This document shows, piece after piece, positions 19,442-64,000 of a stretch of 64,000 bases of DNA (the stretch's first letter is position 1; every line of letters begins with the position of its first letter). The notes under the pieces are model-generated. The model saw nothing but the letters and a program-made list of their open reading frames with translations. It did no database searches and had not been told where the DNA came from. Source of the DNA: a virus (lineage: Duplodnaviria; Heunggongvirae; Uroviricota; Caudoviricetes); the IMG/VR virus record IMGVR_UViG_2925891887_000001; one strand, written 5' to 3'. The translations under genes and the position numbers were made by a program.

Positions 19442-19568
19442 GGTGATGCTGCCAACTTACTGATTTAGTGTATGATGGTGTTTTTGAGGTGCTCCAGTGG
19501 CTTCTGTTTCTATCAGCTGTCCCTCCTGTTCAGCTACTGACGGGGTGGTGCGTAACGGCAAAAGCACC
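19442..19568 (+). mobile_element. IS1 left-end fragment (127 bp: IRL plus first 24 codons of insA)
   Basis: Exact reverse complement of 55086-55212, the end of the complete IS1 in this window. Starts GGTGATGCTGCCAACTTACTGAT. Similarity stops after AAAGCACC. Confidence 0.95.
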
Positions 19569-19577
19569 ACCTTTTTA

Positions 19578-20678: not shown

Positions 20679-20835
20679 CCCGTCTCCTTTATTTTAATTT
20701 GCGCAATTGTCGCCTTGTAGTGTACTCCAGCTACGACATTTAATCATTTATGAGAAATGCTGTTATCACATGGCAGACATAAGGCCATTTTGTTACTATC
20801 AAGCCCCTTTTCACTACAAAGAAGTAATGCCTACT

Positions 20836-24927: not shown

Positions 24928-25673
24928 CCGTAATTCTACGCAGCAGATAGCGCTACAGCGTCCAAATTTCACCACAGACGACTCAACACACTACCAACAA
25001 AAACACACGCTCAAAATCGCTCCCGTTGCGTTACACAACCATATAAACAACTTATTTTCAGGTATAACAAAACAACTAAATAACACACATGCCATTACCC
25101 AAAACAACCAACCTCTTTATGGCAGGCTACCGAAAAGACCCACCTCTTCTCCCCAGGCTACCGGACAACCAACCTAACTTTCACAGGCAATCCGAAAACA
25201 TTCATACGCGCGATACCCACGACACGCCATTACCCAAACAGCGAAGAAACACCAGAATCACTGAAAACCCAACGAAGCCTGTTACCGCAAGGATTCTCTC
25301 AATCCCAAAAGACACGAAACAGAACAATCACGGGAAACGCCATTACCCAATACACGAATAACTACAAAAGCCTTTCACACACTCCAGACAAACAACTCAA
25401 ACACAATAACGAAAGGAATCGCCCACCTGCCATTACTCCATACACGGAGAAGAACAATCACCAAAACGACGAGAACACCCCATAGAAGAACCACCGCAAA
25501 ACGAACGAAACCACATACACCGACAGAGAGAACAACACACCCAATTCACCAACAGAAATAGTCGCCGTATAGAACGTTCTGGAAGGAGTGAGCATTAACG
25601 CCTATAGAGAGGTTGAGACAGATAAAACACAACATGTATAGCGAAGAAGCCAGGTATGTATAAGTGGGGAGGG

Positions 25674-34009: not shown

Positions 34010-35569
34010 CTAATCTCGTTTCAGAACTCCAAAATCGAATGCGCCATCAACAGGCAATACACCTTCTGCAAAGCCAGGTGTGGTGTCGATGATGTGTTTT
34101 CGCTCATAAGAGTGAGACAACAGGTATTTGTTGCTAATGTCAATGAAATCAGTGATAAAACACACGTTTGCCTGATTCTTCTTGGCTCGTAAGCCACGAC
34201 CGACACGTTGTCTCATTTCAACTTCTGCTTTCCCACCACCAGCAAGAATGACCGCACCAACGCTTGGCACATCAACACCGACATCCAGAATAGTCGAGCC
34301 TATTAAAACATCTATGTCGCCAGACGCTAAACTGTTCAGCTTTGCTTGCCTTGTCGACTGGTTCGATTCCCCATAAATGAAGTCAACTCTAAGGCCGGAC
34401 TCTTTCATCATTTCCATCAGGATTTGCCCGTGGCGTTTAAGACGAACCAGAGTCATACAATTGAGAGAATGTTGCTTATAGAGCAATGCTTCGCGAACAA
34501 TGGCCTCATTACGTCCCAAATTATACACGATCCCCAACTGATAAGCCTTTTGGTAGGCAGTGCTCATACCTACTCTAAAATTGAGGTGTTTGTTGGCAAG
34601 TTCTGCCTTGATTCTGGCCTCGTCCGGCTTGTAGGCAACTTTATGATAAAGGAAGTATGGCTTTGCCAGAATGCCTCTATCAATCAGGTACTTTTCCGTG
34701 ACTTTTATTTCAATTCGCCCGGCCACTGCCATCAGACGCATGTTGGCTTCCGTAGAATCCTTCATGAACGGCGTTGCCGTAAGCGCCAGGCGATAGTCTG
34801 CGTTCGCACATAATCTGGCAATGTCATAGAAATTAGAGCCTGAAGACTCATGCGCCTCTTCCAGAATAAGAAGAGAGACACTTGAAAGGAAGCGTTTCAC
34901 CAAGTCCCGACGTTTGAGGTGGTAGCTCTTCTTATCTGGAGTTGCATCGCGTGGTGGTTCTTCAAGGAAACTTGCCAGAGTTTGAACTGTAGCGACGTTG
35001 ATATGTCGTGATACCTGGAACTCACCCGAGCCAATGACTCCAACCTTTTGGTCTTTTAACCACGGTTCGCCATTTTCGGCGCGGTAGTCGATGGATCTCT
35101 GGAAGTTTTCGGCCATCTGAAACATCAGAACAGAGCGGGTTGTTAAAAATAATGTCATTCGACCGATACGTGCAGCTGCTTTGCAGGCAACATTAGATTT
35201 CCCGCCACCAGTAGCGATCTGCGCAATCATCATTCCCTCTCGAACCAGTGTTTCCACAGTCTGATCCTGATATGCATAATCAGGATTGTATGGGAATGGG
35301 TTGACCGCCGGATTTGGCTTTCCAAGCGCCGGAGCTTTGTCTTTGCGGATATGAACACATTTGATGCCCGCCTTGTTCAAGTTCGCCGCTACAGGCTTGG
35401 CAAAGCCAGCAGGGAACGAGTTTTTACTCCAGTTGAACATCGTGCTTGTGCCCTTCCAGTCGCCAGTCTCGACTTCGTAGCTCAACATCTGTTGCACCAG
35501 TTGCTTTACCTTGTCATCTGCGCCAGAAATAAGTGCATTTACTGCGTTAGATACAATCCGAACAGTCAT
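34010..35569 (-). CDS. SF2 (DEAH-type) DNA helicase
   Basis: Motif I IATGGGKS, motif II LILEEAHE, motif III LTATP, motifs V-VI VGVDVPSVGAVILAGG...QRVGRGLR. Confidence 0.85.
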   Translation of the reverse strand: MTVRIVSNAVNALISGADDKVKQLVQQMLSYEVETGDWKGTSTMFNWSKNSFPAGFAKPVAANLNKAGIKCVHIRKDKAPALGKPNPAVNPFPYNPDYAYQDQTVETLVREGMMIAQIATGGGKSNVACKAAARIGRMTLFLTTRSVLMFQMAENFQRSIDYRAENGEPWLKDQKVGVIGSGEFQVSRHINVATVQTLASFLEEPPRDATPDKKSYHLKRRDLVKRFLSSVSLLILEEAHESSGSNFYDIARLCANADYRLALTATPFMKDSTEANMRLMAVAGRIEIKVTEKYLIDRGILAKPYFLYHKVAYKPDEARIKAELANKHLNFRVGMSTAYQKAYQLGIVYNLGRNEAIVREALLYKQHSLNCMTLVRLKRHGQILMEMMKESGLRVDFIYGESNQSTRQAKLNSLASGDIDVLIGSTILDVGVDVPSVGAVILAGGGKAEVEMRQRVGRGLRAKKNQANVCFITDFIDISNKYLLSHSYERKHIIDTTPGFAEGVLPVDGAFDFGVLKRD

Positions 35570-35633
35570 AAACCTCTTTCCTTAGTGCCTTTTGTATGTT
35601 ATTTGGCTATTATAATAAGTAAGTGATTACTTA

Positions 35634-36332
35634 ATGGATTGTAGCAATAAAATGGATGTAAAAATCACGATTTTGCAGGTTGATGTTGCCAACCTTCGCC
35701 CGAATACCTGGAACACCAATTCGGTTGGTGCGCAGAATTTCGAAAAACTGAAAGGTTCTATCGAAAAATTGGGCTTTTTTAAGCCAATTTTGGCTCGTGA
35801 ACTTGAAGATGGATTTTTTGAAATCCTCGGCGGCGAACATCGCTGGCGTGCCGCTATTGAGCAAGGAATTTCAACGGTTCCGGTGCTTTCTGTGGGCAAA
35901 ATTAGCGATGTCGTAGCTAAACAGATGTCACTGGTGGACAACGAGCGATACGGTGAAGACGACCAAATCGCATTGCAACGCTTCATTGAAGAAATTCAGT
36001 CAGAGCTTGACTATCAACTGTCTGAAATCGCCCCGTATGACGACGAAATCTCGATGGTTTTAGCAAAAGAGGCGGCAATCGACCTTGAAGCACTGGAGGC
36101 GTTGTCTCGTGGTAGTGATGAGCCTGTCGATACCGACAAACGAGAGAAAACCGAACGTGTGGGTGCGGAACATCAGACCATGCGCTTCAAAGTAACTTTC
36201 GATGCGTCAGATCGTGTTGCAGAAACCATAAAAAACATCATTAAAGAGCAGGCTATTAACACCGGTAATGAAATGGAGAACGCTGGTGAGGCTCTGGTGT
36301 GGCTGGTCGACTACTACAAGGAGCGTATGTAA
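35634..36332 (+). CDS. ParB/Srx-fold N-terminal domain protein 1
   Basis: LRPNTWNTN...FKPILARELEDGFFEILGGEHRWRAAIEQGISTVPV matches the ParB N-terminal domain GxxR box. Acidic C-terminus. Confidence 0.65.
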   Translation: MDCSNKMDVKITILQVDVANLRPNTWNTNSVGAQNFEKLKGSIEKLGFFKPILARELEDGFFEILGGEHRWRAAIEQGISTVPVLSVGKISDVVAKQMSLVDNERYGEDDQIALQRFIEEIQSELDYQLSEIAPYDDEISMVLAKEAAIDLEALEALSRGSDEPVDTDKREKTERVGAEHQTMRFKVTFDASDRVAETIKNIIKEQAINTGNEMENAGEALVWLVDYYKERM

Positions 36333-37000
36333 TGACCAAAAAGTTTGAAATCGTATATCGCGACCCGGCAGATCTTATTCCCTATGAGATGAATGCCAAA
36401 AAGCATGATGAACAGCAGATCCGAGATCTGGCCGCAGCCATTAAAAAGCGCGGATTTGACCAGCCAATTACGGTCGATAAGAACGACGTAATTATTACTG
36501 GCCACGGCCGCCGTGAGGCTGCAATTTTTGCTGGACTTGAGCGCGTACCGGTTATTGTTCGCGATGATCTCAGTGATGACGAGGTTCGTGCGAAGCGCCT
36601 TGAAGATAACCGACTTGCCAGCATTGATTACGATGCAATTAAGCTACAGAAAGAGCTTGAGTCGCTTGTTCTGGACGATATCGAGGTTTTCGGCTTTGAA
36701 GAGCGTGAGTTGAATGTTCTCGTTGGCAGTATGACAGAAGAAATGGACACCGACTCGCTAGTTATCGATCTTGGCGAAGAAACTAAACGACAGAAGGATG
36801 AACACACCGTGATCAGTCGTGAAGTTGCAGCGGAAGAAGTACGTGTTGTCGACGTATTGGGCTTTAAAACGCTCCCTGCTGGCTCTGCCATTGTTGTTGG
36901 TGATTTGCTTGCCCACATGGAAGAAATGACGGGAGAAAGCGGGGTAGACGCATTTGTGGCATATGCGGAGAAGATCTCTTCCGGGGAGATGGCTGCATGA
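36332..37000 (+). CDS. ParB/Srx-fold N-terminal domain protein 2
   Basis: LIPYEMNAKKH...FDQPITVDKNDVIITGHGRREAAIFAGLERVPVIV. TAATG overlap with the upstream gene. Confidence 0.65.
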   Translation: MTKKFEIVYRDPADLIPYEMNAKKHDEQQIRDLAAAIKKRGFDQPITVDKNDVIITGHGRREAAIFAGLERVPVIVRDDLSDDEVRAKRLEDNRLASIDYDAIKLQKELESLVLDDIEVFGFEERELNVLVGSMTEEMDTDSLVIDLGEETKRQKDEHTVISREVAAEEVRVVDVLGFKTLPAGSAIVVGDLLAHMEEMTGESGVDAFVAYAEKISSGEMAA

Positions 37001-37635
37001 GCAAATACATCATCAACGTATCGTTTCAGACACGCGTAAATAAAACCACGCGCACGTTGGAAATCGCTGAGTCGTTCGGGCTTGGCCTGGACGAAAAAGA
37101 GTGGACGCTTTACGACAATCTGGAGCTGGAAGTGAAGCAGGGCGATGTGGTGTACATTACCGGCCAATCCGGTTCCGGCAAATCCGTTGTGCTGCGCGAG
37201 CTGCAACACCAGATGAAGGATGAAGGGCTATCTGTGGCCTCCATCGATGATTTTACCTTCGATAATGAGGTTAACGTCATTGACCAACTGGGCAAAACTA
37301 CCAGTGATGCGCTTGGGTTGTTATCTATGGCTGGTCTGAACGATGCATATCTGTTTGTTCGCAAGCCTTCTGAAATGTCAGACGGTCAGAAATATCGTCT
37401 CAAGATTGCCAAACTGATTGAGTCAGGCGCTAAAGTGTGGGCTGCTGACGAGTTCGGCGCTGTTCTCGACCGTGTAACCGCTCAGGTTGTGGCATCTAAC
37501 CTCCAGCGTGCCGCTCGAAAGGTTGGTGCGACGGTAATGGTGGCGACGACTCACGAAGACCTGAAGAACGCGCTGCGCCCGGATATGCAGATCACCAAGC
37601 ACTACAAAGAACGCGTGAAGGTGGAATATGCCTGA
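36997..37635 (+). CDS. stand-alone ABC-type ATPase
   Basis: Walker A ITGQSGSGKSV, signature-like MSDGQKYRLKIA, Walker B VWAADEFGAVLD, H-loop ATTHE. ATGA overlap. Confidence 0.7.
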   Translation: MSKYIINVSFQTRVNKTTRTLEIAESFGLGLDEKEWTLYDNLELEVKQGDVVYITGQSGSGKSVVLRELQHQMKDEGLSVASIDDFTFDNEVNVIDQLGKTTSDALGLLSMAGLNDAYLFVRKPSEMSDGQKYRLKIAKLIESGAKVWAADEFGAVLDRVTAQVVASNLQRAARKVGATVMVATTHEDLKNALRPDMQITKHYKERVKVEYA

Positions 37636-49686: not shown

Positions 49687-52600
49687 ATGTCACAAAACGT
49701 AGAGTTTATCCTGTCGCTGGAAGACAAACAGTTTACAGCGTCAATCGATCGTGCGGGGAAACTGCTTACTCGATTTGGTGAGCAGGTAACAAAGCCTGCT
49801 CAAAAAATCCAAACCTTTGAACGCTCTTTGGGTTCGGTCGCCCGTATCATTGGCGTTCTGGAAAGCAAGCTCGATTCTACGGCAGATAAACTACAGGATG
49901 TAGCTGCCGGTTTTGAGCTTGCTTCAGATGCTACGCGTAAAATGCGTGGCAACATCACCAGCCTCAATTCTGGTCTTAAAGCCCTGATTGAGCGCGTCGA
50001 TACGACAACTTCTTCAGTAGATAAACTCACCGCGTCATTACGTAAAGTGCAATCAGAGCTAAATGATTTCTCTGATTGGGCGACCTATGCAAGCAAAAGC
50101 GCAAGCCGCTTTGGTACGGAGGTCAAAGAAGCCTCTGCGTCCGTGAGTGGCATGAATACGCGCCTTAATACCACGACGAAGCGACTCAGTAATTGGGGTG
50201 TCTCAACGAGTCAGGCTGCCGAGGGACTGAAAAAGGTTCGTGAGCAGATGGACGAAGTTATCGGACGTCAGCAACTGATTAGCAAGCCGGTACGCGTTCG
50301 TACATCTGGAGGTAGCGATGGTGGCAGCGGGCGGCGTAGCGGCTCTGGCCATAGCGGTAAAAGTAACGAAGGAGGTATGTTCTCTGGCCTTCGTGGCAAC
50401 ATTTTCCTGCTTGGCGAGATCGGAGATGCAGCCAGAACGGTTACTGACATCATGTTTGGGTGGCAGAAGCCTATTGTTGAAGCTGCGGCCGAAATGGAAC
50501 GTATGCGGGTGATGCTTCGAGGGTTGAATAAGGAGAAGTCCAACCCGGGCCAGGCTGCCGCTGATGATATGAAGTACATCGTAGACATGGCTCAAAATGC
50601 GCCGTTCGCGATGCAGGCGTTAACAGACTCCTTCGTGAAGTTTCGTTCTGCTGGCTTAGATCCAACCGATGGTTCTCTGAAGGCGCTGGTGGACTCCGTT
50701 GCTCGTTTTGGTGGTGATAGTGAGCTGTTGAAACGTGCGGCTGTGGCCGTTCAGCAGATGTCCGGTAAGGGCGTTGTGTCAATGGAAGAGCTACGTCAGC
50801 AATTAGGTGAAGCCGTTCCTAACGCGATGCAGGCAATGGCAGACGCCGCAGGCATCACTATGGGGGAACTGACTAAAGCCGTTGCCAGCGGTACGGTTGA
50901 GGCAAAACAGGCGTTGTCTCTGATGTTTGTTGGTCTGCGTGCGGAGAATGAGAACGCAGCGAAAGACATGATGCAAACCTACACAGGTGCGCTGGCGCAA
51001 CTTCAGACGTCATTCACGTTATTTGCTGATCGGGTTGGTCAGGCCGGATATCTGGATTCTCTATCGAAGGGGATGAAAGAACTGGCTTCAATCATGAATA
51101 GCGCCGAAGGGATTTCGTTTGCCAATTCTTTAGGTTCGGGGTTAACAACGGCAATCGATGGGTTGCGTCAGCTTGCTCAATGGTTAGCAAAGAACCAAGA
51201 GCTGGTAATTAATCTCGGTAAGGTCGTGGCCGCGATGGTTGCGTTCAAACTGATGCGAGCAGGGATCATGGGGGTAGTTGGCGCTGGGAGCCAGATGGTT
51301 AGCACCTTTGCCACGATGGCGACCGCCATACAGACTCCATTTAACCTCGGCGCTACAGCAGTAACTCGATTCAATCGTGCGGCACGTATGGGGCTGGCTC
51401 CGATCCCCTCTCTTATTTTCGCCATCCGTGGGGCGATTACGGGGCTTAAAGGCGCTTTTGCTGGATTAACGGCGTTCATTGCAGCAAACCCTATAGGGGC
51501 AGCATTTACAGTTGCCACAGTAGCTGTTGCTGGCCTAATCACGTACATGACCATGCTCCGCAGCGAAACTTCAAAGGTCGTTGACGAGATTAGGAAAATA
51601 CCAGAGGCGATGACGGCGGCCAAACGTGCACAGATGGCGGAGTATAAAGCGCGTCTTGAGCAACAAATCACGCAAAAGGAACAAGAGTTAAAATCTGGCG
51701 AAAAGGTGGTTTATGGGCCGGGTATGGCCGGAACTACAGTAAAGATTAATCAGGATGAACGTAAGCGTATAGAAAATGAGCTAAATGACCTTCGTGAGAA
51801 ACGCGATAAAACTACTGGGGCAATTGAACGCGGAGACACTGCTGTAGCCAAACGTCTTGCAAAAGATGCGGCAGAATCACAGATAGAGAAAATACGGGAA
51901 GAGAATAGAGACTTTGCGGCAACATTCGCTAAAGCTCGTCAAGAGGCTCTGGATAAGATCCAGAAAATCAATGATGACGGTTCACTTTCAGATGACGAAA
52001 AGAACAAGCTATTGGCACCGTTACGTGAAACGGTAAACAAAAGCTATCTGGAGCCTGCGCAAAAACTGGTTGATTCACTTTCTTCTCGTAAGAATGCGAC
52101 CGAGAAGCAAATTGCGACTCTTAATGATCAGCTTGAAAAAGCCAAAAAGGATGGAAATACCGAGCAGATCCAGAAACTGCAAGGCAGTATTCGTGGTTAT
52201 CAGGAGCATTTGGAAGCCGTTGCTCAGGAGCTGACTCAGGCAGAGTTCGAGAGAGATAACGCGGCCAAAACTGGTAAGGGCGTAATGTCAAACCAGGGGA
52301 CTGTTCTTGGGTTAGGTACAACTGATAAAGCTGCTCAGAAGGCGCTGGCGCAATATATGCGAAACCAGATGGATTCTGCGACTTATCAGCGTACTTTGCC
52401 TGACGGCACTCCGATGATGGACTTCGAAGGTAAGCCGATTATTGGGCCTAAACAACTCAAGACGCAGCTTAATTTGCAGAAAGCATCCAGCGCCAGCTCT
52501 CTGGAGAAAATGAGCGATGAAGAGCGTGCCGCAGCCATTGCTGCACTGACTAAAGCTCGTGAACAGGATGCCGCAGCCGCCGAGAAAGCAGCCCAACGAT

Positions 52601-54261
52601 CAGCTAACGCCTCGCAGCGTGCGGCCAAGAAGGAACAGGCAGCGCAACAGAAACTGGCAGCCGGATACCAGAAGGCTCTGGACAAAGCCGATCAGCTTAT
52701 GGGGCAAATGGGTGAAAGCTCTAAGGCTACGGTATCGTTTGATCAGTCTCTTCGCGATACAACGAAATCGCTGACAGATTTGGCTAATGCGGTTCCTAAC
52801 GAGTTCATCACTCAAGAGATGATCGACAAGGCGAAAAAACGTCTTGAAGACCTCAAAAATGCGACACCTGAATATCGCGAGATGTTTAATCGCCGCAATG
52901 TTGAGCAGATGATCTCCACCTGGGCACCGGAGGCGGATTCCATTATTAGTGCTGGCTATACGCCGTCTCGCGAAGAGAAAGTTGCTGATTTCGAAGACAC
53001 CTACAACCGCAATCTCAAAGCGTTGATAGAACTTCGTGATAAGGCGTCTGATCCTAAAGTTGTGGCGCTTTATACAAAGAAAATCAATCAACTGATTGCT
53101 GCTGGCAATACCGCGCTTATTAAAGAGACGGGGACTGCGACGCAGAAGTTGGCACTGGAATACGAAAACCTGGCAGAGCAGATCGAAAGCACCTGGACTG
53201 ATTTGTTTAGTGGCTTAACTGATGTCCTGACTGATTTCGTTATTAACGGGAAGATGAGCTTCTCCAGCCTATCTCAGTCCATTTTGAAAGATATCACCAA
53301 TATGGTCGTGAAGTCGCAAATCACGCTGCCTCTAATGAACATGTTGGGGATGGGAACCACCGCAGCTGGTAGTTCACAGAGTGGCAATTTGCTCACTGGA
53401 GTTGCTTCTGCCGTTGCCAATCAAGGTGTACGAATGGGCAACACTGTTAATGGCGACAAGTCGGTAGGAGAAGCCACGAAGGAGACGTCCAGTTCGGTAA
53501 CTGGATTGGGGCAAACAACACAGCAGACCACCAGCGCAATTGGCACAGCAACAAATGCGATTGGTAGCTGGGTATCGGGGCTATTTGATAGCACCGAAGC
53601 CAAAGATGCTGAGACAAAAGCAGTGAAGGACTCCATCTTCTCGATGCAGAACCTCAGCTCTGTTACCGGCGCTCTGTCTGCCGCGTTTGCAATGCTTGGA
53701 GCTAATGCTTCCGGCTCTGGTAATAAGTGGTTGAATTTCGGCGCGACAGTTGCATCTGGTTTGGTTTCAGTATGGGCTGGTGGTGGATTCGATGGATTGA
53801 TGTCCGGTTCTTCTGGCTCAACTTCCGGGTTCAACAATCTGACCAGTTCTGCTGCCGATGGCACGAATGGTATTCCTGCAATTCCGAAGTTTGCAAATGG
53901 TGGCATATTCGGAAAAGACGGCGTGATCCCGCTCCGGGCATACCAGAAAGGCGGTATCGCCAACTCACCTCAATTGGCGTTGTTTGGGGAAGGCGATATG
54001 AATGAGGCGTATGTTCCATTGCCTGATGGCCGAACAATCCCTGTAACGCTCAGTACCGATGGTATGAGTGGAGGCGGAAATGTTCTTTCTCCTGTATCAA
54101 TTGAGATCAACGTCCATAGTGACGGTAGCACGACAGAATCCGGCGATACAGAAAGCATATGGAACAATGCCGCTCAACGGATGAAAGCAATCGCGCTTGA
54201 GACTATCGCTCAAGAGAAACGCCCTGGCGGATCACTCAACCCAAACACTCAACGTAACTAA
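49687..54261 (+). CDS. tail tape measure protein
   Basis: About 1524 aa with long helical regions, hydrophobic central segments and a Gly-rich C-terminal part. Position is canonical. Confidence 0.9.
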   Translation: MSQNVEFILSLEDKQFTASIDRAGKLLTRFGEQVTKPAQKIQTFERSLGSVARIIGVLESKLDSTADKLQDVAAGFELASDATRKMRGNITSLNSGLKALIERVDTTTSSVDKLTASLRKVQSELNDFSDWATYASKSASRFGTEVKEASASVSGMNTRLNTTTKRLSNWGVSTSQAAEGLKKVREQMDEVIGRQQLISKPVRVRTSGGSDGGSGRRSGSGHSGKSNEGGMFSGLRGNIFLLGEIGDAARTVTDIMFGWQKPIVEAAAEMERMRVMLRGLNKEKSNPGQAAADDMKYIVDMAQNAPFAMQALTDSFVKFRSAGLDPTDGSLKALVDSVARFGGDSELLKRAAVAVQQMSGKGVVSMEELRQQLGEAVPNAMQAMADAAGITMGELTKAVASGTVEAKQALSLMFVGLRAENENAAKDMMQTYTGALAQLQTSFTLFADRVGQAGYLDSLSKGMKELASIMNSAEGISFANSLGSGLTTAIDGLRQLAQWLAKNQELVINLGKVVAAMVAFKLMRAGIMGVVGAGSQMVSTFATMATAIQTPFNLGATAVTRFNRAARMGLAPIPSLIFAIRGAITGLKGAFAGLTAFIAANPIGAAFTVATVAVAGLITYMTMLRSETSKVVDEIRKIPEAMTAAKRAQMAEYKARLEQQITQKEQELKSGEKVVYGPGMAGTTVKINQDERKRIENELNDLREKRDKTTGAIERGDTAVAKRLAKDAAESQIEKIREENRDFAATFAKARQEALDKIQKINDDGSLSDDEKNKLLAPLRETVNKSYLEPAQKLVDSLSSRKNATEKQIATLNDQLEKAKKDGNTEQIQKLQGSIRGYQEHLEAVAQELTQAEFERDNAAKTGKGVMSNQGTVLGLGTTDKAAQKALAQYMRNQMDSATYQRTLPDGTPMMDFEGKPIIGPKQLKTQLNLQKASSASSLEKMSDEERAAAIAALTKAREQDAAAAEKAAQRSANASQRAAKKEQAAQQKLAAGYQKALDKADQLMGQMGESSKATVSFDQSLRDTTKSLTDLANAVPNEFITQEMIDKAKKRLEDLKNATPEYREMFNRRNVEQMISTWAPEADSIISAGYTPSREEKVADFEDTYNRNLKALIELRDKASDPKVVALYTKKINQLIAAGNTALIKETGTATQKLALEYENLAEQIESTWTDLFSGLTDVLTDFVINGKMSFSSLSQSILKDITNMVVKSQITLPLMNMLGMGTTAAGSSQSGNLLTGVASAVANQGVRMGNTVNGDKSVGEATKETSSSVTGLGQTTQQTTSAIGTATNAIGSWVSGLFDSTEAKDAETKAVKDSIFSMQNLSSVTGALSAAFAMLGANASGSGNKWLNFGATVASGLVSVWAGGGFDGLMSGSSGSTSGFNNLTSSAADGTNGIPAIPKFANGGIFGKDGVIPLRAYQKGGIANSPQLALFGEGDMNEAYVPLPDGRTIPVTLSTDGMSGGGNVLSPVSIEINVHSDGSTTESGDTESIWNNAAQRMKAIALETIAQEKRPGGSLNPNTQRN

Positions 54262-54459
54262 CTATCGACTGCCCCGACCGGGGCAGTCTCACAAGGATGT
54301 GAGATGGAAAGACAAACGTTTAATTGGTATCCAGATTACGAATCTGAAAAGAGCGTAAAACCGAATGTAACGGTACTTAATTTTGGTGATGACTACGAGC
54401 AGCGACAGGCTCAAGGTCTTAATCGTATTAAAGAAGAATGGTCGGGTAATGACTCCAAC

Positions 54460-54963
54460 TTATTGATAGTGTTTTATGTTCAGATAATGCCCGATGACTT
54501 TGTCATGCAGCTCCACCGATTTTGAGAACGACAGCGACTTCCGTCCCAGCCGTGCCAGGTGCTGCCTCAGATTCAGGTTATGCCGCTCAATTCGCTGCGT
54601 ATATCGCTTGCTGATTACGTGCAGCTTTCCCTTCAGGCGGGATTCATACAGCGGCCAGCCATCCGTCATCCATATCACCACGTCAAAGGGTGACAGCAGG
54701 CTCATAAGACGCCCCAGCGTCGCCATAGTGCGTTCACCGAATACGTGCGCAACAACCGTCTTCCGGAGCCTGTCATACGCGTAAAACAGCCAGCGCTGGC
54801 GCGATTTAGCCCCGACATAGCCCCACTGTTCGTCCATTTCCGCGCAGACGATGACGTCACTGCCCGGCTGTATGCGCGAGGTTACCGACTGCGGCCTGAG
54901 TTTTTTAAGTGACGTAAAATCGTGTTGAGGCCAACGCCCATAATGCGGGCAGTTGCCCGGCAT
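54460..54963 (-). CDS. insB: IS1 InsB' (expressed as InsAB' by a -1 frameshift)
   Basis: 167-aa ORF overlapping the insA end. The A6C slippery run (TTTTTT on the plus strand near 54903) lies in the overlap. Confidence 0.9.
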
Positions 54964-55157
54964 CCAACGCCATTCATGGCCATATCAATGATTTTCTGGT
55001 GCGTACCGGGTTGAGAAGCGGTGTAAGTGAACTGCAGTTGCCATGTTTTACGGCAGTGAGAGCAGAGATAGCGCTGATGTCCGGCGGTGCTTTTGCCGTT
55101 ACGCACCACCCCGTCAGTAGCTGAACAGGAGGGACAGCTGATAGAAACAGAAGCCAC
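54882..55157 (-). CDS. insA: IS1 InsA
   Basis: [40 protein letters not shown]..., 91 aa. Confidence 0.95.
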
Positions 55158-55423
55158 TGGAGCACCTCAAAAACACCATCATACACTAAATCAGTAAGTT
55201 GGCAGCATCACCGAATGGTCGTTAACCTTTACCAGATCATACAACGAAATTAATGCAATCGATGACTTCCTGACTGAGCGAGCAGGCGTTGAGTCGTTCT
55301 ATTGGGTTAATCCAAGAGGAAAACGGATTGTAGTTGTATGTGACAGTCATACGGTCAAGCGATATCAGGGGTACTGTGTCTTAACTGCTACATTCAGACA
55401 AGTATTTGAGGCTTAAGTATCTG

Positions 55424-55448
55424 GATAAGTAAGTACTAATTTACTATC
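55424..55448. repeat. GTAAGTA-type palindrome (GATAAGTAAGTACTAATTTACTATC)
   Basis: Imperfect dyad between genes M and L. Confidence 0.6.
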
Positions 55449-55499
55449 ATTGTGGCGCTGACAGGATGTTAGCGCCTACTTATTTCAAGGATGAAACAA

Positions 55500-56197
55500 T
55501 GGGAATTAAAGCTGATATTCAGAGCTTATCTCCCTCTGCACTCATTGAGTTGTTCGTACTGGATATGTCGAACACAACTTCAGGGGGGAAGTTATTCTTC
55601 CACGCCGGAACAAACGAACTGATGCAACCTGTCGTCTGGCAAGGAGTGACATACGAGCCGTGGCCAATCAAAGCATCAGGCTTTGACAAAACTGGCCAGG
55701 GAACGTTGCCACGTCCAAAAATTCAGGTATCGAACTTTGCCGGAACCGTCTCTGCGGAAGTTCAGGCGAACGACGATCTTGTTGGCTGCCGCATTATTCG
55801 CAAGATGACGCTGGCTCGCTTCCTCGATGCCGTTAATTTTAAAGACGGCAACCCAACAGCAGATCCAAACCAACATTTCCCGGATGAAATGTGGTTTATC
55901 GAACAGAAAACGCTCGAAACTCATCAGGTTGTCGAGTTTGAGTTGTCCAGTGTGTTCGATTTGATGGGGGTGCAACTGCCGTATCGTCAGATCATTAAAA
56001 ACACCTGCCCGTGGAAATACCGAGGGCCAGAATGCGGCTATACCGGTCCATATTTCGACAAAAATAACCAGCAGACGTCTATGTCTGGTGCTGATTACTG
56101 CACAAAACGTTATGACGCCTGTAATGCGCGTCGGAATTATTTTGCCAACGGAGTGATCCATTTTGGCGGGTTTATTGGAGCTACGCGATATGGGTAA
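55500..56197 (+). CDS. minor tail protein L (lambda gpL-like)
   Basis: Collinear with lambda gpL as I recall it (WQG..Y.P.PI...GF, ARFLDAVNF, NTC.W.YRG.ECGY.GP, C-terminal Cys cluster). ATG 55500 follows AAGGA. Confidence 0.85.
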
Positions 56198-56987
56198 TAA
56201 AGCAATCCCTGAGCTTGGCTCTGATGTTATGCAGCAAATCTATCTCTGCGCCATAAATCGCTACCCTAATGAAGCGTGTGGCTTTCTGGTGAGAACTAAT
56301 GGCGACAAATATCGCTTTATGGAAGCGCGAAATGTTTCGGAGAACCCGCAGAACACTTTTGTAATGCACGTTGACGACATTATAGCGGCAGAGGATGCAG
56401 GTGACGTAATCGCAATCTGGCATTCACATACTGATGAATCAGCAGAAGCATCTGATGCCGATCGTGCAGGCTGTGAAGCGACGGAAGTTCCGTGGATGAT
56501 TCTGGCTATTCGCAAGAATGTTGAGGGAGATGCCCCTTTCCATTTTAGCGAGATGAATGTGATCACACCTGATGGTTTCGAAATGCCATACCTGGGTAGA
56601 CCGTATGTATTTGGCGTATTCGATTGCTGGATGTTGTGTCGGGACTATTTGAAGCGTGAGTTTAACGTCGAGCTTAACCCGAACGCACACCTGCATATTC
56701 CATCGTGGTACACCGGCGATAACGACATTCTCGACCAGAACTACCGAAACGAAGGGTTGGTACGGCTTGCGCCTGGAACAGAGCCTCAACGTGGGGACGT
56801 CTTCTTTATTCAATACGGGAAAATGCCAGATCACTGCGCGGTTTATATCGGCGATGGAATGATTCTTCATCACCAGATCGACCGTCTTAGTTGTCGTGCT
56901 TATTACGGCGGAATGTATCAGAAACATACGACGCATCACTTGCGTCACAGAGACTTGCTCAAGGGAGATGAGACGTGTCTGAGTTAG
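56190..56987 (+). CDS. tail tip assembly protein K (MPN/JAB plus NlpC/P60 domains)
   Basis: EACGFLV...IWHSHTDESAEASDAD (JAMM-like), then FDCWMLCRDY (NlpC/P60 Cys). Overlaps the L stop. Confidence 0.8.
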   Translation: MGNKAIPELGSDVMQQIYLCAINRYPNEACGFLVRTNGDKYRFMEARNVSENPQNTFVMHVDDIIAAEDAGDVIAIWHSHTDESAEASDADRAGCEATEVPWMILAIRKNVEGDAPFHFSEMNVITPDGFEMPYLGRPYVFGVFDCWMLCRDYLKREFNVELNPNAHLHIPSWYTGDNDILDQNYRNEGLVRLAPGTEPQRGDVFFIQYGKMPDHCAVYIGDGMILHHQIDRLSCRAYYGGMYQKHTTHHLRHRDLLKGDETCLS

Positions 56988-57568
56988 TTCATGTGCAGCT
57001 TGGCGGACCTATGGCTAAACATTTTGGTCGCCACTGGCATCTAAAGGTGCGCAATACAAAACAGGCTCTGGATTTAATTGAAGCCAACAAGCCTGGGTTT
57101 AAAGCATGGATGAAGCGCAATATCAAAACCTATGACAGTTACCACATCCAGATCACCAATAAACAGGGCCACAAGTGGTCTGTTGACGAAAGTGAATATC
57201 AGATGATGGGGCAGTCTGACAACATTGCCAAAATCCGCATTACACCTGTTCCGCGAGGAAGCGGTGGATCTGCTTTTGGGTGGTTTCAGACGGTAGTAGG
57301 GGCCGCTTTGTTGGTTGTATCGGCGGTAGTGATGCCTGCTTTAGCACCTCTCGGTTTGTCACTGATGATGGGCGGCATATCACAAATCATATCGCCGCAA
57401 GCCACTAACGAAAGTGTGAGACAGGCAGATAACTCGAACTCTTATTATTTCGACGGCCCTCAAAATACAGAAAACCAGGGCAACCCAGTACAACTTATCT
57501 ATGGCGAGGAAATTCTGGTTGGCTCACAGGTTGTGAGTTCTTCAATCACGATTGACCAGCTAATGTAA
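56975..57568 (+). CDS. tail assembly protein I (lambda gpI-like)
   Basis: Lies between K and J. Hydrophobic segment GWFQTVVGAALLVVSAVVMPALAPLGLSLMMGG and C-terminal PVQLIYGE. Confidence 0.75.
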   Translation: MSELVHVQLGGPMAKHFGRHWHLKVRNTKQALDLIEANKPGFKAWMKRNIKTYDSYHIQITNKQGHKWSVDESEYQMMGQSDNIAKIRITPVPRGSGGSAFGWFQTVVGAALLVVSAVVMPALAPLGLSLMMGGISQIISPQATNESVRQADNSNSYYFDGPQNTENQGNPVQLIYGEEILVGSQVVSSSITIDQLM

Positions 57569-57585: not shown

Positions 57586-60500
57586 ATGGAACAGTTCAAG
57601 AAGAAAAAGCTACCGCTGTTTATTGCCGGTGCGGGTGGTAAAAAAAGCAGCAAAAGCTCTAGTCGTACACCGGTTGAAGCCGACGATACCGTAAATTCTC
57701 GTGCAATGGCCGCTATCCTCGATCTTCTTGGGGAAGGGGTAATTGGCGGCTTAGTAAATGGCGCAAGATCTATTTTTATCGACGATCTGCCGATTGTAAA
57801 TGAAGACGGTTCCTCCAACTTCAGCGGAATCACATGGGATTTTCGCGACGGTTCACAAGACCAGACTCCAATGTCTGGCTTTGATTTCGTTGAAACGCCT
57901 AAATCCGTCAATATCCAGTTAAAAAAAACACATTATGTAACGGTTTCAATCGATAACGATGAAGCTGATCGGGTTCGTGTCATCATGAAGTTTCCTTCTT
58001 TGCGAAGCATAGATAAAAAAACTGGTGACACGAACGGTACGACTGTTGAGTACAAGTTCCAGATAGCAAATGGCGACTCAACATTTGTAGATGTGGTCGC
58101 GGAAGGTGAAAAAAGCGTTGGCATTAAGCTAACAGCAAAGAAGACCGGCGTTTATTACCGTAGCTACGAGCTGAAGCTGCCTAAGCCTGGACGCGCATAC
58201 AAGGTTCGTGTAGTCCGTATTACCGATGATAACAGTAGCCAGTATCTCTATAACGATACATGGGTGGATTCAATCGGGGAAATTGTCGATACACCGATGA
58301 ACTATCCAAACTCTGTTTTGGTTGGATTGAAGGTAAACTCTGAGCAATTCGGCAGCACCATGCCATCTCGCTCTTATCTGGTGCGTGGCCTAAAAATTCG
58401 AGTACCTTCAAACTATAACGAGTCCAGTAACACTTACGCTGGGGTATGGGATGGCACTTTTAAGCTGTTGTCTTCTTCGAACCCCGCGTGGATTCTCTTT
58501 GATTTGCTGACCAATGCTCGATATGGCCTTGGTCAGTATGTGTCGGAATCTATGATTGACCTTGGCCAGTTGTACCAGATTGGTCGATATTGTGACGAAG
58601 AGGTCGATGATGGCTTTGGTGGCAAAGAGAAACGCTTTGCAATCAATACGCAGATCACCAGTCGACAGGACGCATACCGGCTAATTCAGGATATTGCCGG
58701 AGCATTCCGCGGCATGGTGTTTTGGGCTGGTGGGATGGTTAACATCATGCAGGATAGCCCATCAGATCCGGTAATGATGTTTACCAACTCTAACGTCAAA
58801 GATGGATTGTTTACCTATAAAGGTTCTGCGCGTAAAGATCGCCCATCCGTTGCGCTCGTAACCTACAACAACAAGGAGGACGGTTATAAGCAAAACATCG
58901 AGTACGTCGAAGATCAGGACGCAATGCGCCGTTATGGTGAGCGTAAAACAGAAGTCGTAGCATTTGGCTGTACAAGCCGAGGGCAGGCTCACCGAGTTGG
59001 TTTGTGGCTTTTATATACCGCCAGAATGGAGTCGGATGTAATTACATTTACTGCCGGCTTAGACGCGTCATTTCTGATGCCTGGTGAAACCGTTCTGATT
59101 CAGAACAAATATCGCGCAGGCAAACGTAACTCAGGTCGAATTGTGGCGTTTACCAAAAACAGCGTCACACTCGATGCGCCTGTGTCGTTAGCCAAAGGCG
59201 GCTGCTTTATTCGAATACTGAATCAGGAAGGCAAAATCGTTGAACGCGATGTTCTTGAAACTGGCGAAAATATAACAAAAGTTACGTTTTCAAAAGCCCT
59301 GTCTTCGGCTGAAACGCCTGTTTTGAACGGCGTCTGGACTATTACAGAACCAGACCTCGAACCTATGCGCGTTCGCATCGTTAACATCGCGCAGGGGGAA
59401 ACGCCGGGTAGCTTTGACATCACCGCTGTTGAGAACAATCCGTCTAAATATGAGGCAATCGACAATGGTGCAACGCTGATCCCACAGAATACGACGGTAT
59501 TGGACCCAACTTACTCCAAGCCATCTAATCTGCAAATCACTGAAGGGACTTATCTCTCAAGCCCGGGCAACCTGTCAGTAAAACTGACTGCAACATGGGA
59601 AGGGAAATCTCCAGAGTATTGGATCAGTTGGCGACGTTCTGATGAAAACAATGTATCGAACTGGCAATCGGCGCGTGTAACCGAAGAGCAATACGAAATC
59701 GTTAATGTCGCGGAGAATGGACGCTACGACTTCCAGCTGTATGCGGTTTCATTCAACGGTAAAAAAACAGAGATTATCAGTACCGTTTATCAGGTGTTGG
59801 GCACAATGACACCGCCGGATGCCCCAACGTCATTAACGGCCGTTGGAGACTATCGTAATGTGATACTGAATTGGGTTAATCCAGATTCGGTAGACCTTGA
59901 TCACATTAATGTTTACGCATCCCAGACCAACAATCTGGATACGGCGAAACTGATCGCAGAGTCTGCAAGCACCACCTTTACACATGCTGGTCTTGGGGAT
60001 AGCGAAACGTGGTATTACTGGGTTCGAGCATCGAACAAGCGAGGTATGTTAAGTCCTCCGAACTCAAACTTGGGTACAGAGGCGACAACTCGCGATGTAC
60101 TGTCGTTCCTGACTGGCAAAATTACATCTTCCGAGCTTGGTCAGGCTCTGCTTGAGGACATCAACAGCAAAGCCTCTCAAGAAGCAGTTGACGAGTTAAA
60201 TGAGCATATCAACCAGAGCGTCGAATCTTTGGAGGGGGCGGTAAACGACGTTAAGGAAGATATAGCTGAATTAGATAAGCAGTTCAGCGATAACCTCGCG
60301 GATTTTGAAATAAAATTCAACGAGCGTAGCGATGCTTTGGAGAACGCACAAACCGAGCTTAAAGGTGAGGTTTCGGCAACGATCGACAAGGTCAATGAAG
60401 CGTTTGAAAAAATTGATGCTACTGATGCTGCAATTGTTGAAATCGAAAACACCGTATCTGAACACGATAAAGCTCTCGCTAATACAGTCGAGGCAATAAA

Positions 60501-62313
60501 GGCTGCAAGAGATGAAGCGGCGGCTCTTATTGCTAAGGAAAGCGAGGCTCGTGTTGAAGGCGATGCTGCAAACGCTAAACAACTGGAAGTGTTGCAGTCA
60601 ACGGTAGAGGAAAGCTCCGCTGCCGTTGAAGAAATGAAAAAGACGGTTGCAGAGGTCGATCGTGCCAGTGCAGAACTGACTACGAACATTGAAGCGTTAG
60701 CTAAAACAAATATTGACCTGGCTCTTCGTCAAGATGAAGACCAGCACAAGCAGATGGTCAATAACGCGAAGATCGCAACAACACAGAAAACCTTTGCTGA
60801 TGATATGTCCGCAATGGCCACGAAGGTTGAGGAAATTCGCGTAGAAATTGGCGAAGACATTAAGGCCAGTATTCTGGAAGAGTCCACCGCTCGTGCCGAT
60901 GGCGATGAAGCGTTGGCAAAGCGTGTCACTCAGCTGCAATCTAAGTTTGAAGGAGATATCAGCGCGGCGATTAGTACAGAGCAGGAGGCTCGTACATCTG
61001 CCGATGAAGCTCTGACGACACAAATCACTCAGCTTGAGTCGAAAGTAAGCAACGATATCGTCGCAGCTATTAAGGAAGAGCAAGAAGCCCGAGCAACGGA
61101 AGATTCGGCTCTGGCAAGCCAGATCACCCAACTTCAGGCAAAAGTTGATGATGATATTTCTGCTGCAATACGCAGTGAGCAGGAGGCCCGAGCAAGCGGG
61201 GACTCTGCGTTAGCCAAACAAATAAACCAGCTTCAGTCAAAGGTTGACGGTGATATATCCGCTGCCATCACTCAGGAGCAGGAGGCCAGAGCAAGTGCTG
61301 ACCAGGCGCTCTCACGAGAAATTAACAGCCTGCGAGCACAAACCGGAACTGATATTGCCGCAGCGGTTGCTGTAGAGACAAAAGCAAGGACTGATGCCGA
61401 TAGTGCATTGTCTACCCAGATTACGTCTCTTACAGCAAAAGCTAATGATCTCAAGGCGTCTCTTGCCAGAGAAACAACGGCTCGTGCAGATGGTGATACC
61501 GCTTTAACAAAAGAGGTTTCAAGTTTAAAAGCACAGACAGCGAAAGATATTAGTGCGGCCGTTGCAGTTGAAACGCAGGCTCGAACTGATGCTGACTCGG
61601 CGTTGTCGTCTCAGATCACCAAGCTGACCTCTCAATACAAAGAGGATATTAAAGCGGCTGTAGCAACCGAAACGAAAACGCGTACAGAGCAAGATGCTGC
61701 ATTGGCGACTCAAATCACAAACTTAGAGTCTCAAACGGCAGCCAACATTTCCGCGGCGGTCACAACTGAAACGAAAGCGAGAACGCAGGCAGATAATGCT
61801 CTGAGTGGGCGAATCGATACTCTGAAAGCAGAGGTGAATGGAAATACCGCGACAATTCAACAGCAGGCAACAGCTATTGCTGATACCAACAAAAAAGTGT
61901 CAACCGCGTGGACGTTGAAAATGGAGACTTCAACGAGCGGAGGGCAGAAGTATGTTGCCGGTATTGCGCTTGGTATTGACACCACTGGGCTATCTCAGTT
62001 TTTGGTTCAGGCGGACAGGTTTGGTTTGGTCAACTCTGTTAACGGGAAGATCACAACGCCATTTGTTATCGAAAACAGTATCGCCTATATGAATGGAGCG
62101 TATATCAAGGATGGCACAATCACCAATGCAAAAGTAGGCGATCTGCAATCTACCAATTTTGTTAGCGGTAGATCTGGATGGCGGTTCGGCAAAAATGGAA
62201 CGCTTGAGATCAACGGTAATAGCGGCGGCAATGGGCGATTGGTTATAAATGGTCAGCGGATTGACGTTTATGACGATAACAACGTCCTACGAGTAAGAAT
62301 TGGCCGTCTGTGA
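57586..62313 (+). CDS. tail tip/host specificity protein J (lambda gpJ-like) with an extended coiled-coil repeat region
   Basis: N-terminus is collinear with lambda gpJ (TP.EA.D...S...A.I.D...EG.I.G). FN3-like segment near 59800-60060. Ten tandem repeats of about 33 aa at 60877-61850. ATG 57586 follows AAGGA. Confidence 0.9.
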   Translation: MEQFKKKKLPLFIAGAGGKKSSKSSSRTPVEADDTVNSRAMAAILDLLGEGVIGGLVNGARSIFIDDLPIVNEDGSSNFSGITWDFRDGSQDQTPMSGFDFVETPKSVNIQLKKTHYVTVSIDNDEADRVRVIMKFPSLRSIDKKTGDTNGTTVEYKFQIANGDSTFVDVVAEGEKSVGIKLTAKKTGVYYRSYELKLPKPGRAYKVRVVRITDDNSSQYLYNDTWVDSIGEIVDTPMNYPNSVLVGLKVNSEQFGSTMPSRSYLVRGLKIRVPSNYNESSNTYAGVWDGTFKLLSSSNPAWILFDLLTNARYGLGQYVSESMIDLGQLYQIGRYCDEEVDDGFGGKEKRFAINTQITSRQDAYRLIQDIAGAFRGMVFWAGGMVNIMQDSPSDPVMMFTNSNVKDGLFTYKGSARKDRPSVALVTYNNKEDGYKQNIEYVEDQDAMRRYGERKTEVVAFGCTSRGQAHRVGLWLLYTARMESDVITFTAGLDASFLMPGETVLIQNKYRAGKRNSGRIVAFTKNSVTLDAPVSLAKGGCFIRILNQEGKIVERDVLETGENITKVTFSKALSSAETPVLNGVWTITEPDLEPMRVRIVNIAQGETPGSFDITAVENNPSKYEAIDNGATLIPQNTTVLDPTYSKPSNLQITEGTYLSSPGNLSVKLTATWEGKSPEYWISWRRSDENNVSNWQSARVTEEQYEIVNVAENGRYDFQLYAVSFNGKKTEIISTVYQVLGTMTPPDAPTSLTAVGDYRNVILNWVNPDSVDLDHINVYASQTNNLDTAKLIAESASTTFTHAGLGDSETWYYWVRASNKRGMLSPPNSNLGTEATTRDVLSFLTGKITSSELGQALLEDINSKASQEAVDELNEHINQSVESLEGAVNDVKEDIAELDKQFSDNLADFEIKFNERSDALENAQTELKGEVSATIDKVNEAFEKIDATDAAIVEIENTVSEHDKALANTVEAIKAARDEAAALIAKESEARVEGDAANAKQLEVLQSTVEESSAAVEEMKKTVAEVDRASAELTTNIEALAKTNIDLALRQDEDQHKQMVNNAKIATTQKTFADDMSAMATKVEEIRVEIGEDIKASILEESTARADGDEALAKRVTQLQSKFEGDISAAISTEQEARTSADEALTTQITQLESKVSNDIVAAIKEEQEARATEDSALASQITQLQAKVDDDISAAIRSEQEARASGDSALAKQINQLQSKVDGDISAAITQEQEARASADQALSREINSLRAQTGTDIAAAVAVETKARTDADSALSTQITSLTAKANDLKASLARETTARADGDTALTKEVSSLKAQTAKDISAAVAVETQARTDADSALSSQITKLTSQYKEDIKAAVATETKTRTEQDAALATQITNLESQTAANISAAVTTETKARTQADNALSGRIDTLKAEVNGNTATIQQQATAIADTNKKVSTAWTLKMETSTSGGQKYVAGIALGIDTTGLSQFLVQADRFGLVNSVNGKITTPFVIENSIAYMNGAYIKDGTITNAKVGDLQSTNFVSGRSGWRFGKNGTLEINGNSGGNGRLVINGQRIDVYDDNNVLRVRIGRL

Positions 62314-62406: not shown

Positions 62407-64000
62407 ATGTGGTACAGGGAAGGTACTATCACATTTACACAGGGCAGCAATACTCTGGTTGGGGCAGGGACAGCCTGGAACGTAACAGCTAATGGTGTGT
62501 TGCCGGGGATGATCGTCATTGGCCCCGACAATAAGCTGTATGAGATCAAGCGCGTAACCAGTGATACGAACATTGTTCTCTCAGAACCTTATACCGGCGA
62601 AACTCAGTCTGAAGTTCCGTGCCGAATCATTACGACCTATGAAGGCGACTTAACACAGTTTAGCGCGCGCTTTACTGCGCTAATGTCGCGTATGTCGGCT
62701 GATTCCAAGTCCATACGCAGTTGGTTGACTGCGCTGGATGAGGTGACAATCGAGCGTGAAGACGGTACAGAAGTGACCGTTAAGCCGCTAATGCAGATCG
62801 TCAACGAGCACAACGAAAACGTTGAGTGGTATAAAAATAACACTGACGCGATTGATGCTGCTGGCGACAAAGCTCGTGAGGCGGCGGCCAGTGCTGCCGC
62901 AGCAGCAAAAAGCGCCAATGCCGCTGGAGAAAAAGCCTCTCAAGCGTCTCAAAGTGCATCCGCTGCGGCATCCTCACAAAGTGCCGCAAGTGCGAGTGCA
63001 ACTGCTGCGAAAAAATCTGAAACGAATGCTGCAGCGTCACAAAAATCTGCAGCCACTTCTGCATCCACCGCGACCACGAAGGCGTCAGAAGCTGCCACCT
63101 CAGCCCGGGATGCGGCGGCCTCAAAAGAGGCAGCGAAATCATCAGAAACGAGCGCAGCCTCGAGCGCCAGTAATGCCGCTTCCTCGGCAACGGCGGCAGG
63201 AAATTCCGCGAAGGCGGCAAAAACGTCCGAGACGAACGCCAGGTCTTCTGAAACGGCAGCGGGACAGAGCGCCTCGGCTGCGGCAGGCTCAAAAACAGCG
63301 GCTGCGTCGTCTGCCAGTGCCGCGTCAACAAGTGCCGGGCAGGCCTCAGCCAGTGCCACCGCCGCCGGAAAATCGGCAGAAAGTGCCGCATCGTCTGCTT
63401 CAACTGCCACAACGAAGGCTGGCCAAGCCACTGAACAGGCCAGCGCAGCAGCGAGGTCTGCTTCCGCAGCGAAGACATCCGAAACGAACGCGAAAGCGTC
63501 GGAAACCCGTGCAGAATCCTCAAAAACGGCAGCCGCATCGTCCGCCAGTTCGGCGGCGTCATCGGCATCATCGGCGTCTGCTTCAAAAGATGAGGCGACC
63601 AGACAGGCGTCAGCAGCGAAGGGCAGCGCCACGACGGCATCCACGAAAGCAACAGAGGCGGCAGGCAGTGCGACGGCAGCATCTCAGAGCAAAACTGCTG
63701 CTGAATCCGCTGCGACCCGTGCGGAAGCTGCTGCTGATCGTGCTGAAGAGATTGCCGGTGCAGTTGCGATGGAAGACGCAAGCCTTACAACTAAAGGTGT
63801 TGTGAAACTTAGCAGTGCTGTCGACAGCACCAGTGAATCGCTGGCCGCAACGCCAAAAGCAGTTAAAGCAGCCAATGACAATGCGAATAGCAGGGTGCCA
63901 TCTAACCGAAAAGTTAACGGTAAAGCACTGACTGCGGATATCAAATTAACGCCGAAAGATATTGGTACTTTAAATTCAGTAACGATGTCTTTCTCTGGCG
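62407..64000 (+). CDS. side tail fibre protein, N-terminal part (3' end outside window)
   Basis: ATG 62407 follows AAGGAG. My own translation gives MWYREGTITFTQGSNTLVGAGTAWN..., then a long Ala/Ser/Thr/Lys helical repeat region, then KGVVKLSSAVDSTSESLAATPKAVKAA (conserved tail-fibre motif). The ORF runs to the window end, so it is absent from the ORF track. Confidence 0.85.
   Translation, partial: MWYREGTITFTQGSNTLVGAGTAWNVTANGVLPGMIVIGPDNKLYEIKRVTSDTNIVLSEPYTGETQSEVPCRIITTYEGDLTQFSARFTALMSRMSADSKSIRSWLTALDEVTIEREDGTEVTVKPLMQIVNEHNENVEWYKNNTDAIDAAGDKAREAAASAAAAAKSANAAGEKASQASQSASAAASSQSAASASATAAKKSETNAAASQKSAATSASTATTKASEAATSARDAAASKEAAKSSETSAASSASNAASSATAAGNSAKAAKTSETNARSSETAAGQSASAAAGSKTAAASSASAASTSAGQASASATAAGKSAESAASSASTATTKAGQATEQASAAARSASAAKTSETNAKASETRAESSKTAAASSASSAASSASSASASKDEATRQASAAKGSATTASTKATEAAGSATAASQSKTAAESAATRAEAAADRAEEIAGAVAMEDASLTTKGVVKLSSAVDSTSESLAATPKAVKAANDNANSRVPSNRKVNGKALTADIKLTPKDIGTLNSVTMSFSG

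Follow-up and report, generated by a model that had tools for sequence, protein, structure and literature searches.

An IS1 insertion in the tail gene M of an SSU5/Cyrano-type phage-plasmid of Escherichia coli and its predicted tail defect

Cyrano (pLF82), a close relative of the element studied here, is a phage-plasmid that forms siphovirions with tails of ~259 nm, is induced 39-fold by ciprofloxacin and is present at ~5.5 copies per cell (PMC9928086). For at least one SSU5-like phage-plasmid of E. coli, induction with mitomycin C yielded no particles (PMC9600943). A 2025 survey of the SSU5 group reported that insertions of ISEc9/blaCTX-M-15 avoid the structural-gene region, and that some near-identical plasmids of the group differ solely by the gain or loss of an IS. 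The distal tail protein of lambda is gpM; as a hexameric ring, it attaches the gpL/gpJ tip to the gpV tube (PMC10721106, PMC7291167). Hallmarks of IS1 are a length of 768 bp, imperfect inverted repeats, an A6C frameshift and a target duplication of 8 or 9 bp (PMC12428005). P1-like phage-plasmids have been documented turning into plasmids by loss of phage functions, and the same paper lists inactivation by transposase integration among the costs of gene flow (Pfeifer and Rocha, 2024; PMC10879196). The kind of event that we report is already known: descriptions exist both of prophage genes inactivated by an IS and of phage-plasmids decaying into plasmids (PMC10879196).

Here, we characterized a 64,000-nucleotide stretch of DNA (hereafter the window) in which IS1 interrupts a tail gene. 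Judged by its identity over the tape measure gene and M, which is 98.9% to Cyrano (pLF82) and 77.9% to Salmonella phage SSU5, the backbone is that of an SSU5/Cyrano-type phage-plasmid of E. coli of ~109 kb. The nearest annotated record is NZ_CP195468.1, the circular 109,442-bp plasmid p22AR0322A of a human screening isolate from New Zealand, which carries RepB, two ParB-family genes, terminase, portal, major capsid, tape measure and M-L-K-I-J together. Across complete E. coli genomes, the 24-kb morphogenesis region has 449 matching places, every one on a plasmid and none on a chromosome. The order of the structural module is the same as in SSU5, Cyrano/pLF82 and pECOH89, and the window's element is itself a circular replicon of ~109 kb with RepB and ParB; unlike in those relatives, where M is intact, M is interrupted here. 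Since Cyrano, with its intact M, yields siphovirions, the undamaged form of the tail module demonstrably works in a close relative. A literature search on the strain and plasmid names gave no match.

Table 1. Features at the insertion site and in the adjoining tail genes (positions in the window)
Feature	Position	Strand	Remarks
Tape measure protein gene	49687-54261	+	Intact, directly 5' of M; 1524 aa by PGAP start
M, 5' part (codons 1-47)	54304-54444	+	PGAP: 'phage tail protein, incomplete, missing C-terminus' (NZ_CP195468.1)
Junction ORF	54304-54525	+	73 aa: 47 M residues and 26 from IS1 right end, then stop
Target duplication, left copy	54436-54444		GAATGGTCG
Complete IS1	54445-55212	minus	768 bp; computation and PF03811, PF12759 and PF03400 matches
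IS1 IRR	54445-54467		
insB' frame, open	54460-54963	minus	DDE_Tnp_IS1 full length (PF03400 1-131/131, E 2e-78)
insA	54882-55157	minus	91 aa, GTG start; identical to K-12 InsA
A6C (AAAAAAC) programmed -1 frameshift site	54900-54906	minus	IS1 position 307
IS1 IRL	55190-55212		
Target duplication, right copy	55213-55221		GAATGGTCG
M, 3' part (codons 48-111 and stop)	55222-55416	+	PGAP: 'incomplete, missing N-terminus'
L	55499-56197	+	Intact ORF; Phage_tail_L
K	56190-56987	+	Intact ORF; Prok-JAB and NLPC_P60
I	56975-57568	+	Intact ORF
J	57586-62313	+	Intact ORF; J domains on record

The inserted element (Table 1) begins with GGTAATGACTCC, its IRR, and ends with GGCAGCATCACC, its IRL, and the inverted repeats are imperfect, with 18 of the first 23 terminal bases matching. 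All three IS1 Pfam families (Zn_ribbon_InsA, HTH_Tnp_IS1 and DDE_Tnp_IS1) score above their cut-offs over their full length, and a -1 shift at the A6C site gives, by translation, an uninterrupted 232-aa InsAB'. The copy is of the 'consensus' type of K-12 IS1A and IS1E in its length, imperfect repeats, insA/insB' frames with A6C and 9-bp duplication, and is identical to K-12 IS1A at 766 of 768 nt; of the two substitutions relative to K-12 IS1A, one replaces S by R in the transposase. In NZ_CP195468.1, PGAP labels it 'IS1-like element IS1A family transposase, programmed frameshift'. An initial annotation of this DNA had placed a 768-bp IS1 with intact insA and insB' here on the minus strand, and our coordinates and open frames agree with it. 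From its intact ORFs and fresh duplication, the complete IS1 is predicted to be functional in transposition.

Both copies of GAATGGTCG are exact and the identity stops at 9 bp on each side, which confirms the perfect 9-bp duplication first noticed in the initial annotation. The probability that an exact 9-bp repeat abuts both ends of the element by chance is ~4^-9 = 4e-6, and a scan of both strands of the 64-kb window found no further occurrence of the 9-mer. Comparison with relatives, which had been proposed as a check, gave an empty site with a single GAATGGTCG and an uninterrupted M in both NZ_CP062914.1 and phage Cyrano. Exact duplication of a 9-mer that relatives carry only once at this site is the mark of a real transposition. 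The target is AT-rich, with 32% GC within +/-25 bp vs. 47% for the window.

When the two parts of M are joined, they form a 336-nt ORF of 111 aa and a stop, which IS1 breaks after codon 47 (codon 47/48). A restored ORF resembling lambda gpM had been anticipated, and this stands; the length of 112 aa that was given for it does not, as it includes the stop. The restored protein matches PF05939 (Phage_min_tail) from end to end (1-108/108, 120.6 bits vs. a cut-off of 39, E 5e-35), phrog_14 'minor tail protein' (E 2e-36) and the lambda 'Tail tip protein M' 8iyk_M (E 9.7e-10, residues 4-107), and its gene lies between the tape measure gene and the tip genes in the order TMP-M-L-K-I-J. The Pfam match, the match to 8iyk_M and the synteny uphold the assignment as a gpM homologue. 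Like lambda gpM (8iyk chain M), which has 109 aa vs. 111 aa here, the protein belongs to the same Pfam family and is encoded at the same place between tape measure and L; the two sequences are only distantly similar (E 1e-9), and the presumed role of M in SSU5-type tails is assigned from homology and synteny. RefSeq already flags both halves of M in p22AR0322A as pseudogene fragments around IS1.

The tail genes on either side of M are intact. For a protein identical to that of the window's tape measure gene, TMP_3 and Tape_meas_lam_C are on record in Pfam. Downstream of J, a side tail fibre gene extends from 62407 to 64000 and beyond the window, with an ORF open for 1432 aa from its ATG. This gene was considered as the site of a second lesion, as the PGAP annotation of NZ_CP195468.1 has it as a pseudogene 'missing N-terminus' (from 62872 of the window), and the candidate was rejected: the ORF is open over 1432 aa and identical DNA is called intact in the sibling plasmid described below, which makes the pseudogene an annotation artefact. 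IS1 is the sole structural lesion within the window. Between the stop of M and the start of L, at 55454-55476, there is a hairpin, GGCGCTGACAGGATGTTAGCGCC, with a 10-bp stem followed by a weak T tract, although counts in the scan are at chance level. Over 54000-55700, the consensus scan for promoters and terminators gave counts at the level of shuffled sequence and so does not bear on polarity or read-out.

The empty site is also present in a near-isogenic sibling. Plasmid pCR-0543_1 (NZ_JBSWAS010000002.1; strain 205, urine, Houston) has an intact M and a single copy of GAATGGTCG; over 63.2 kb, just 1 substitution separates it from the window. Compared with p22AR0322A, it differs by 7 substitutions in ~108.7 kb and otherwise only by the IS1 of p22AR0322A and an ISEc12 of its own, so that the sister plasmids differ mainly by one private IS each. 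Because an empty-site sibling lies just 1 SNP away in 63.2 kb, the insertion is evolutionarily recent; the initial annotation had called the event recent, and the sibling supports that claim more strongly than could then have been known. Over 64 kb, 2 SNPs (2028 and 57092) distinguish the window from NZ_CP195468.1, and in each case the window has the base of the sibling. Two SNPs between IS1-bearing copies imply that the broken M has been inherited for some time. On these comparisons of sequence, the IS1 insertion in M (IS1::M) is recent in evolutionary terms, yet stably inherited.

We also considered whether the window is NZ_CP195468.1 itself and rejected this, given the differences at 2028 and 57092. 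Both substitutions are private to p22AR0322A and each alters the RefSeq protein accession; one falls in a gpI-like tail assembly protein 3' of IS1 and the other in a RuvC-family protein. The two protein changes are compatible with relaxed selection, though a sample of two is far too small to conclude. As for the private element of pCR-0543_1, ISEc12 (IS21 family, istA/istB) occupies ~34813-37395 of that plasmid, which corresponds to the intergenic positions 25384-25388 of the window, where the site is empty. The two aligned segments overlap by 5 bp at this site.

The same junction was found in four assemblies including the window, namely the window, NZ_CP195468.1, GCA_033900625.1 (left junction) and GCA_053293165.1 (right junction), and contigs break at the insertion site in two more, GCA_024387605.1 and GCA_022140405.1. 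GCA_033900625.1 is identical to the window through the left junction and up to 126 nt into IS1, and the contig of GCA_053293165.1, which begins 125 nt inside IS1, matches the window without a difference over the right junction as far as 64000. In GCA_024387605.1, a 108,672-bp contig, approximately the plasmid minus IS1, has 54444 as its last base, and in GCA_022140405.1 a contig begins at 55218. The six assemblies come from New Zealand and other sources at least. Over 7.8-10.4 kb, the flanks of the carriers match the window without a single mismatch, and the position and orientation of IS1 are the same in all, which points to one insertion inherited by descent.

Carriers were located through contigs encoding the exact tape measure or J protein, in the 24 longest-contig blocks of 232 and of 260, and proportions drawn from them are biased; in most contigs of those blocks, the 111-aa M is intact. 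The exact L protein occurs in 11,517 blocks, with M intact in all of the longest contigs examined. The 5,426 complete E. coli genomes contain 218 plasmid records with M; the gene has its full length in 216 of them, and the IS1::M junction occurs in p22AR0322A only (1 of ~218 M-carrying records). No PLSDB record has the junction, and neither PLSDB nor the complete E. coli genomes contain IS1 at this site of M on another backbone. Searches with the exact 36-nt left junction gave 0 matches in genome_contigs, viral_contigs and metagenome_contigs, and an exact look-up of the 73-aa fusion ORF returned no record.

We consider it very probable that a single IS1 transposition broke M and that the resulting tail-defective phage-plasmid persists as a plasmid, passed down vertically. 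In the mechanism that we propose, one transposition would have placed a complete IS1 into codon 47/48 of M on an SSU5/Cyrano-type phage-plasmid. The InsAB' DDE transposase would have been made through the -1 shift at A6C, and repair of the staggered target cut would have left the 9-bp duplication. By ORF analysis, the junction ORF is the only translatable product derived from M. The frame of the 3' part is open only from 55198 and has no ATG, GTG or TTG, and the last 64 codons are untranslatable alone because an in-frame start codon is absent. Without the ring of M, the tail tube would not be linked to the L/J tip complex, and we predict that the element with IS1::M is tail-defective. The prediction is a reasonable one given that lambda gpM is the distal tail protein whose ring anchors the tip to the tube, and the presumed essentiality of M is extrapolated from that distantly similar protein (E 1e-9).

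A second effect may be added to the loss of M. IS1 insertions are classically polar in both orientations, as are those in the gal and lac operons in the literature of 1968-1976. L, K, I and J should accordingly be under-expressed, as IS1 would lower the transcription that reaches them. Like the gal and lac mutations, the present insertion places IS1 in the first small gene of an operon, where expression of the genes that follow is expected to be lost whichever way IS1 points; unlike them, it affects a phage late operon, in which transcription may be antiterminated.

Upon induction, replication, DNA packaging and lysis would proceed and tailless, non-infectious filled heads would be released, an outcome to be expected where the genes for replication, packaging and lysis are untouched. 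Such heads would be a dead end for horizontal spread. The element would then persist through plasmid replication and partition (RepB, ParB); the initial annotation had suggested maintenance as a plasmid, and an SSU5-type phage-plasmid with RepB and ParB fits that suggestion, plasmid-only maintenance being the likely state. The allele would have arisen once, on a backbone near-identical to pCR-0543_1, followed by vertical inheritance into the sampled isolates.

By analogy to its relative Cyrano with ~5.5 copies per cell, the element is probably multicopy, and since the assembly is a consensus, a minority of IS-free copies that complement in trans may exist. It is conceivable, though unlikely, that the insertion is real and its phenotype is masked, such that the element still spreads in virions by means of IS-free copies, the M of a co-resident prophage or the dispensability of M. 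IS-free copies could represent heteroplasmy or rare precise excision in an element that is multicopy in Cyrano, the contigs of GCA_024387605.1 and GCA_022140405.1 that stop at the site would be consistent with a mixed population, and the presence of the allele in several assemblies could reflect continued horizontal spread. However, IS1 is the consensus in the complete assemblies, and M supplied in trans would leave polarity on L through J to be overcome as well. Given their divergence, lambda-type M proteins are no obvious substitute, and the retention of full-length M in nearly all plasmid records that carry it (216/218) argues against dispensability. The identical flanks and the 0-2 SNPs among carriers, moreover, fit clonal descent.

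If the tail defect is real and unmasked, it could also have been favoured. Knock-out of M would be adaptive if tail loss were selected in the host lineage as a step from phage-plasmid to pure plasmid, a reading we regard as rather improbable. The allele is old enough to have accrued 2 SNPs between carriers and to have been sampled repeatedly, and the P1-like phage-plasmids provide a documented precedent for such a conversion. On the other hand, induction and lysis are still possible despite the tail defect, which leaves the benefit to the host unclear. Decay is absent elsewhere, the other structural ORFs being intact and identical to those of the sibling, and the allele is rare (1 of ~218 complete records); hitch-hiking in a clone accounts for the data equally well. 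Like the defective P1-like phage-plasmids (PMC10879196), the element would have lost a phage function and persist through plasmid functions; unlike them, in which many phage genes were lost and oriT or conjugation parts were gained, it has one fully reversible lesion and is otherwise intact. IS1::M is at most the very first step towards plasmid conversion. Equally improbable, in our estimation, is that the element is a tailless lineage that has spread between unrelated E. coli host clones. If it has, such spread would need a route beyond its own virions, for instance helper-phage tails, transduction or mobilisation, and the first step of conversion from phage-plasmid to plasmid would have been caught in progress.

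IS1 favours AT-rich DNA and particular hotspots, and the target in M is AT-rich. Independent, repeated insertions at a hotspot might thus explain the several carriers in place of one ancestral event. We hold this to be highly improbable, given that the carriers share position and orientation, that their flanks have 0 mismatches over 7.8-10.4 kb and that, across PLSDB and the complete E. coli genomes, IS1 occupies this site on this backbone only. An assembly artefact, in which mis-joined, repeat-ended contigs would have put IS1 into M while the real plasmid has M intact, had been named in the initial annotation as a reading that would overturn its own, and although IS1 is highly repeated (a median of 10 matching places per E. 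coli genome) and short-read contigs do break at it, we exclude such an artefact as next to impossible because the same junction is present in independent assemblies: IS1 lies in M in both the window and the complete record NZ_CP195468.1, GCA_033900625.1 reads through the left junction and GCA_053293165.1 through the right one, each matching the window without a mismatch, contigs the size of the whole plasmid (108,672 and 108,924 bp) end at the site or ~125 nt into IS1, and GAATGGTCG, present once in relatives, is exactly duplicated here.

A single transposition into M, inherited by descent, is therefore the reading that we carry forward. IS1::M is a slightly unusual but conventional case of a known process, and its recurrence in several isolates is the notable part. 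It is a rare, yet persisting, exception to the avoidance of the structural region recorded in the 2025 survey. Together, pCR-0543_1 with its intact M and the IS1::M plasmids form a natural isogenic pair, with which it could be tested whether virion transfer is a requirement for SSU5-type phage-plasmids in clinical E. coli. The pair could also show how long such an element survives as a plasmid once infectivity is gone.

Several other features of the window and of M deserve mention. A remnant of IS1 at 19442-19571 comprises 130 bp with the IRL end and the start of insA, is identical to the full copy at 129 of 130 positions and lies inverted relative to it. It is present in pCR-0543_1 as well and stems from an earlier IS1 event on this plasmid. 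Recombination between the remnant and the full IS1 would invert ~35 kb. The remnant directly adjoins apbC, which together with metG forms a block of chromosomal-type housekeeping genes (apbC is also named mrp; window 19578-22869). The apbC-metG block, which the window's element has in common with pECOH89 (NC_023916.1), occurs in ~33 PLSDB plasmids including the latter, and most of those PLSDB matches leave nt 1-264 of the query, which include the IS1 remnant, uncovered. Within M, nt 268-300 (window 55348-55380) match over 33 bp and at 100% a CRISPR-annotated feature in the chromosome of E. coli EC42405 (NZ_CP043414.1, 1175319-1175351), which appears to be a spacer aimed at tail gene M. Lastly, a dihydrofolate reductase gene at ~8581-9057, for which the NCBI name is dfrA51 (trimethoprim-resistant), lies in a nucleotide-metabolism cluster with thymidylate synthase and nrdAB; dfrA51 in phage-plasmids is the subject of a 2025 paper (PMC12217456).
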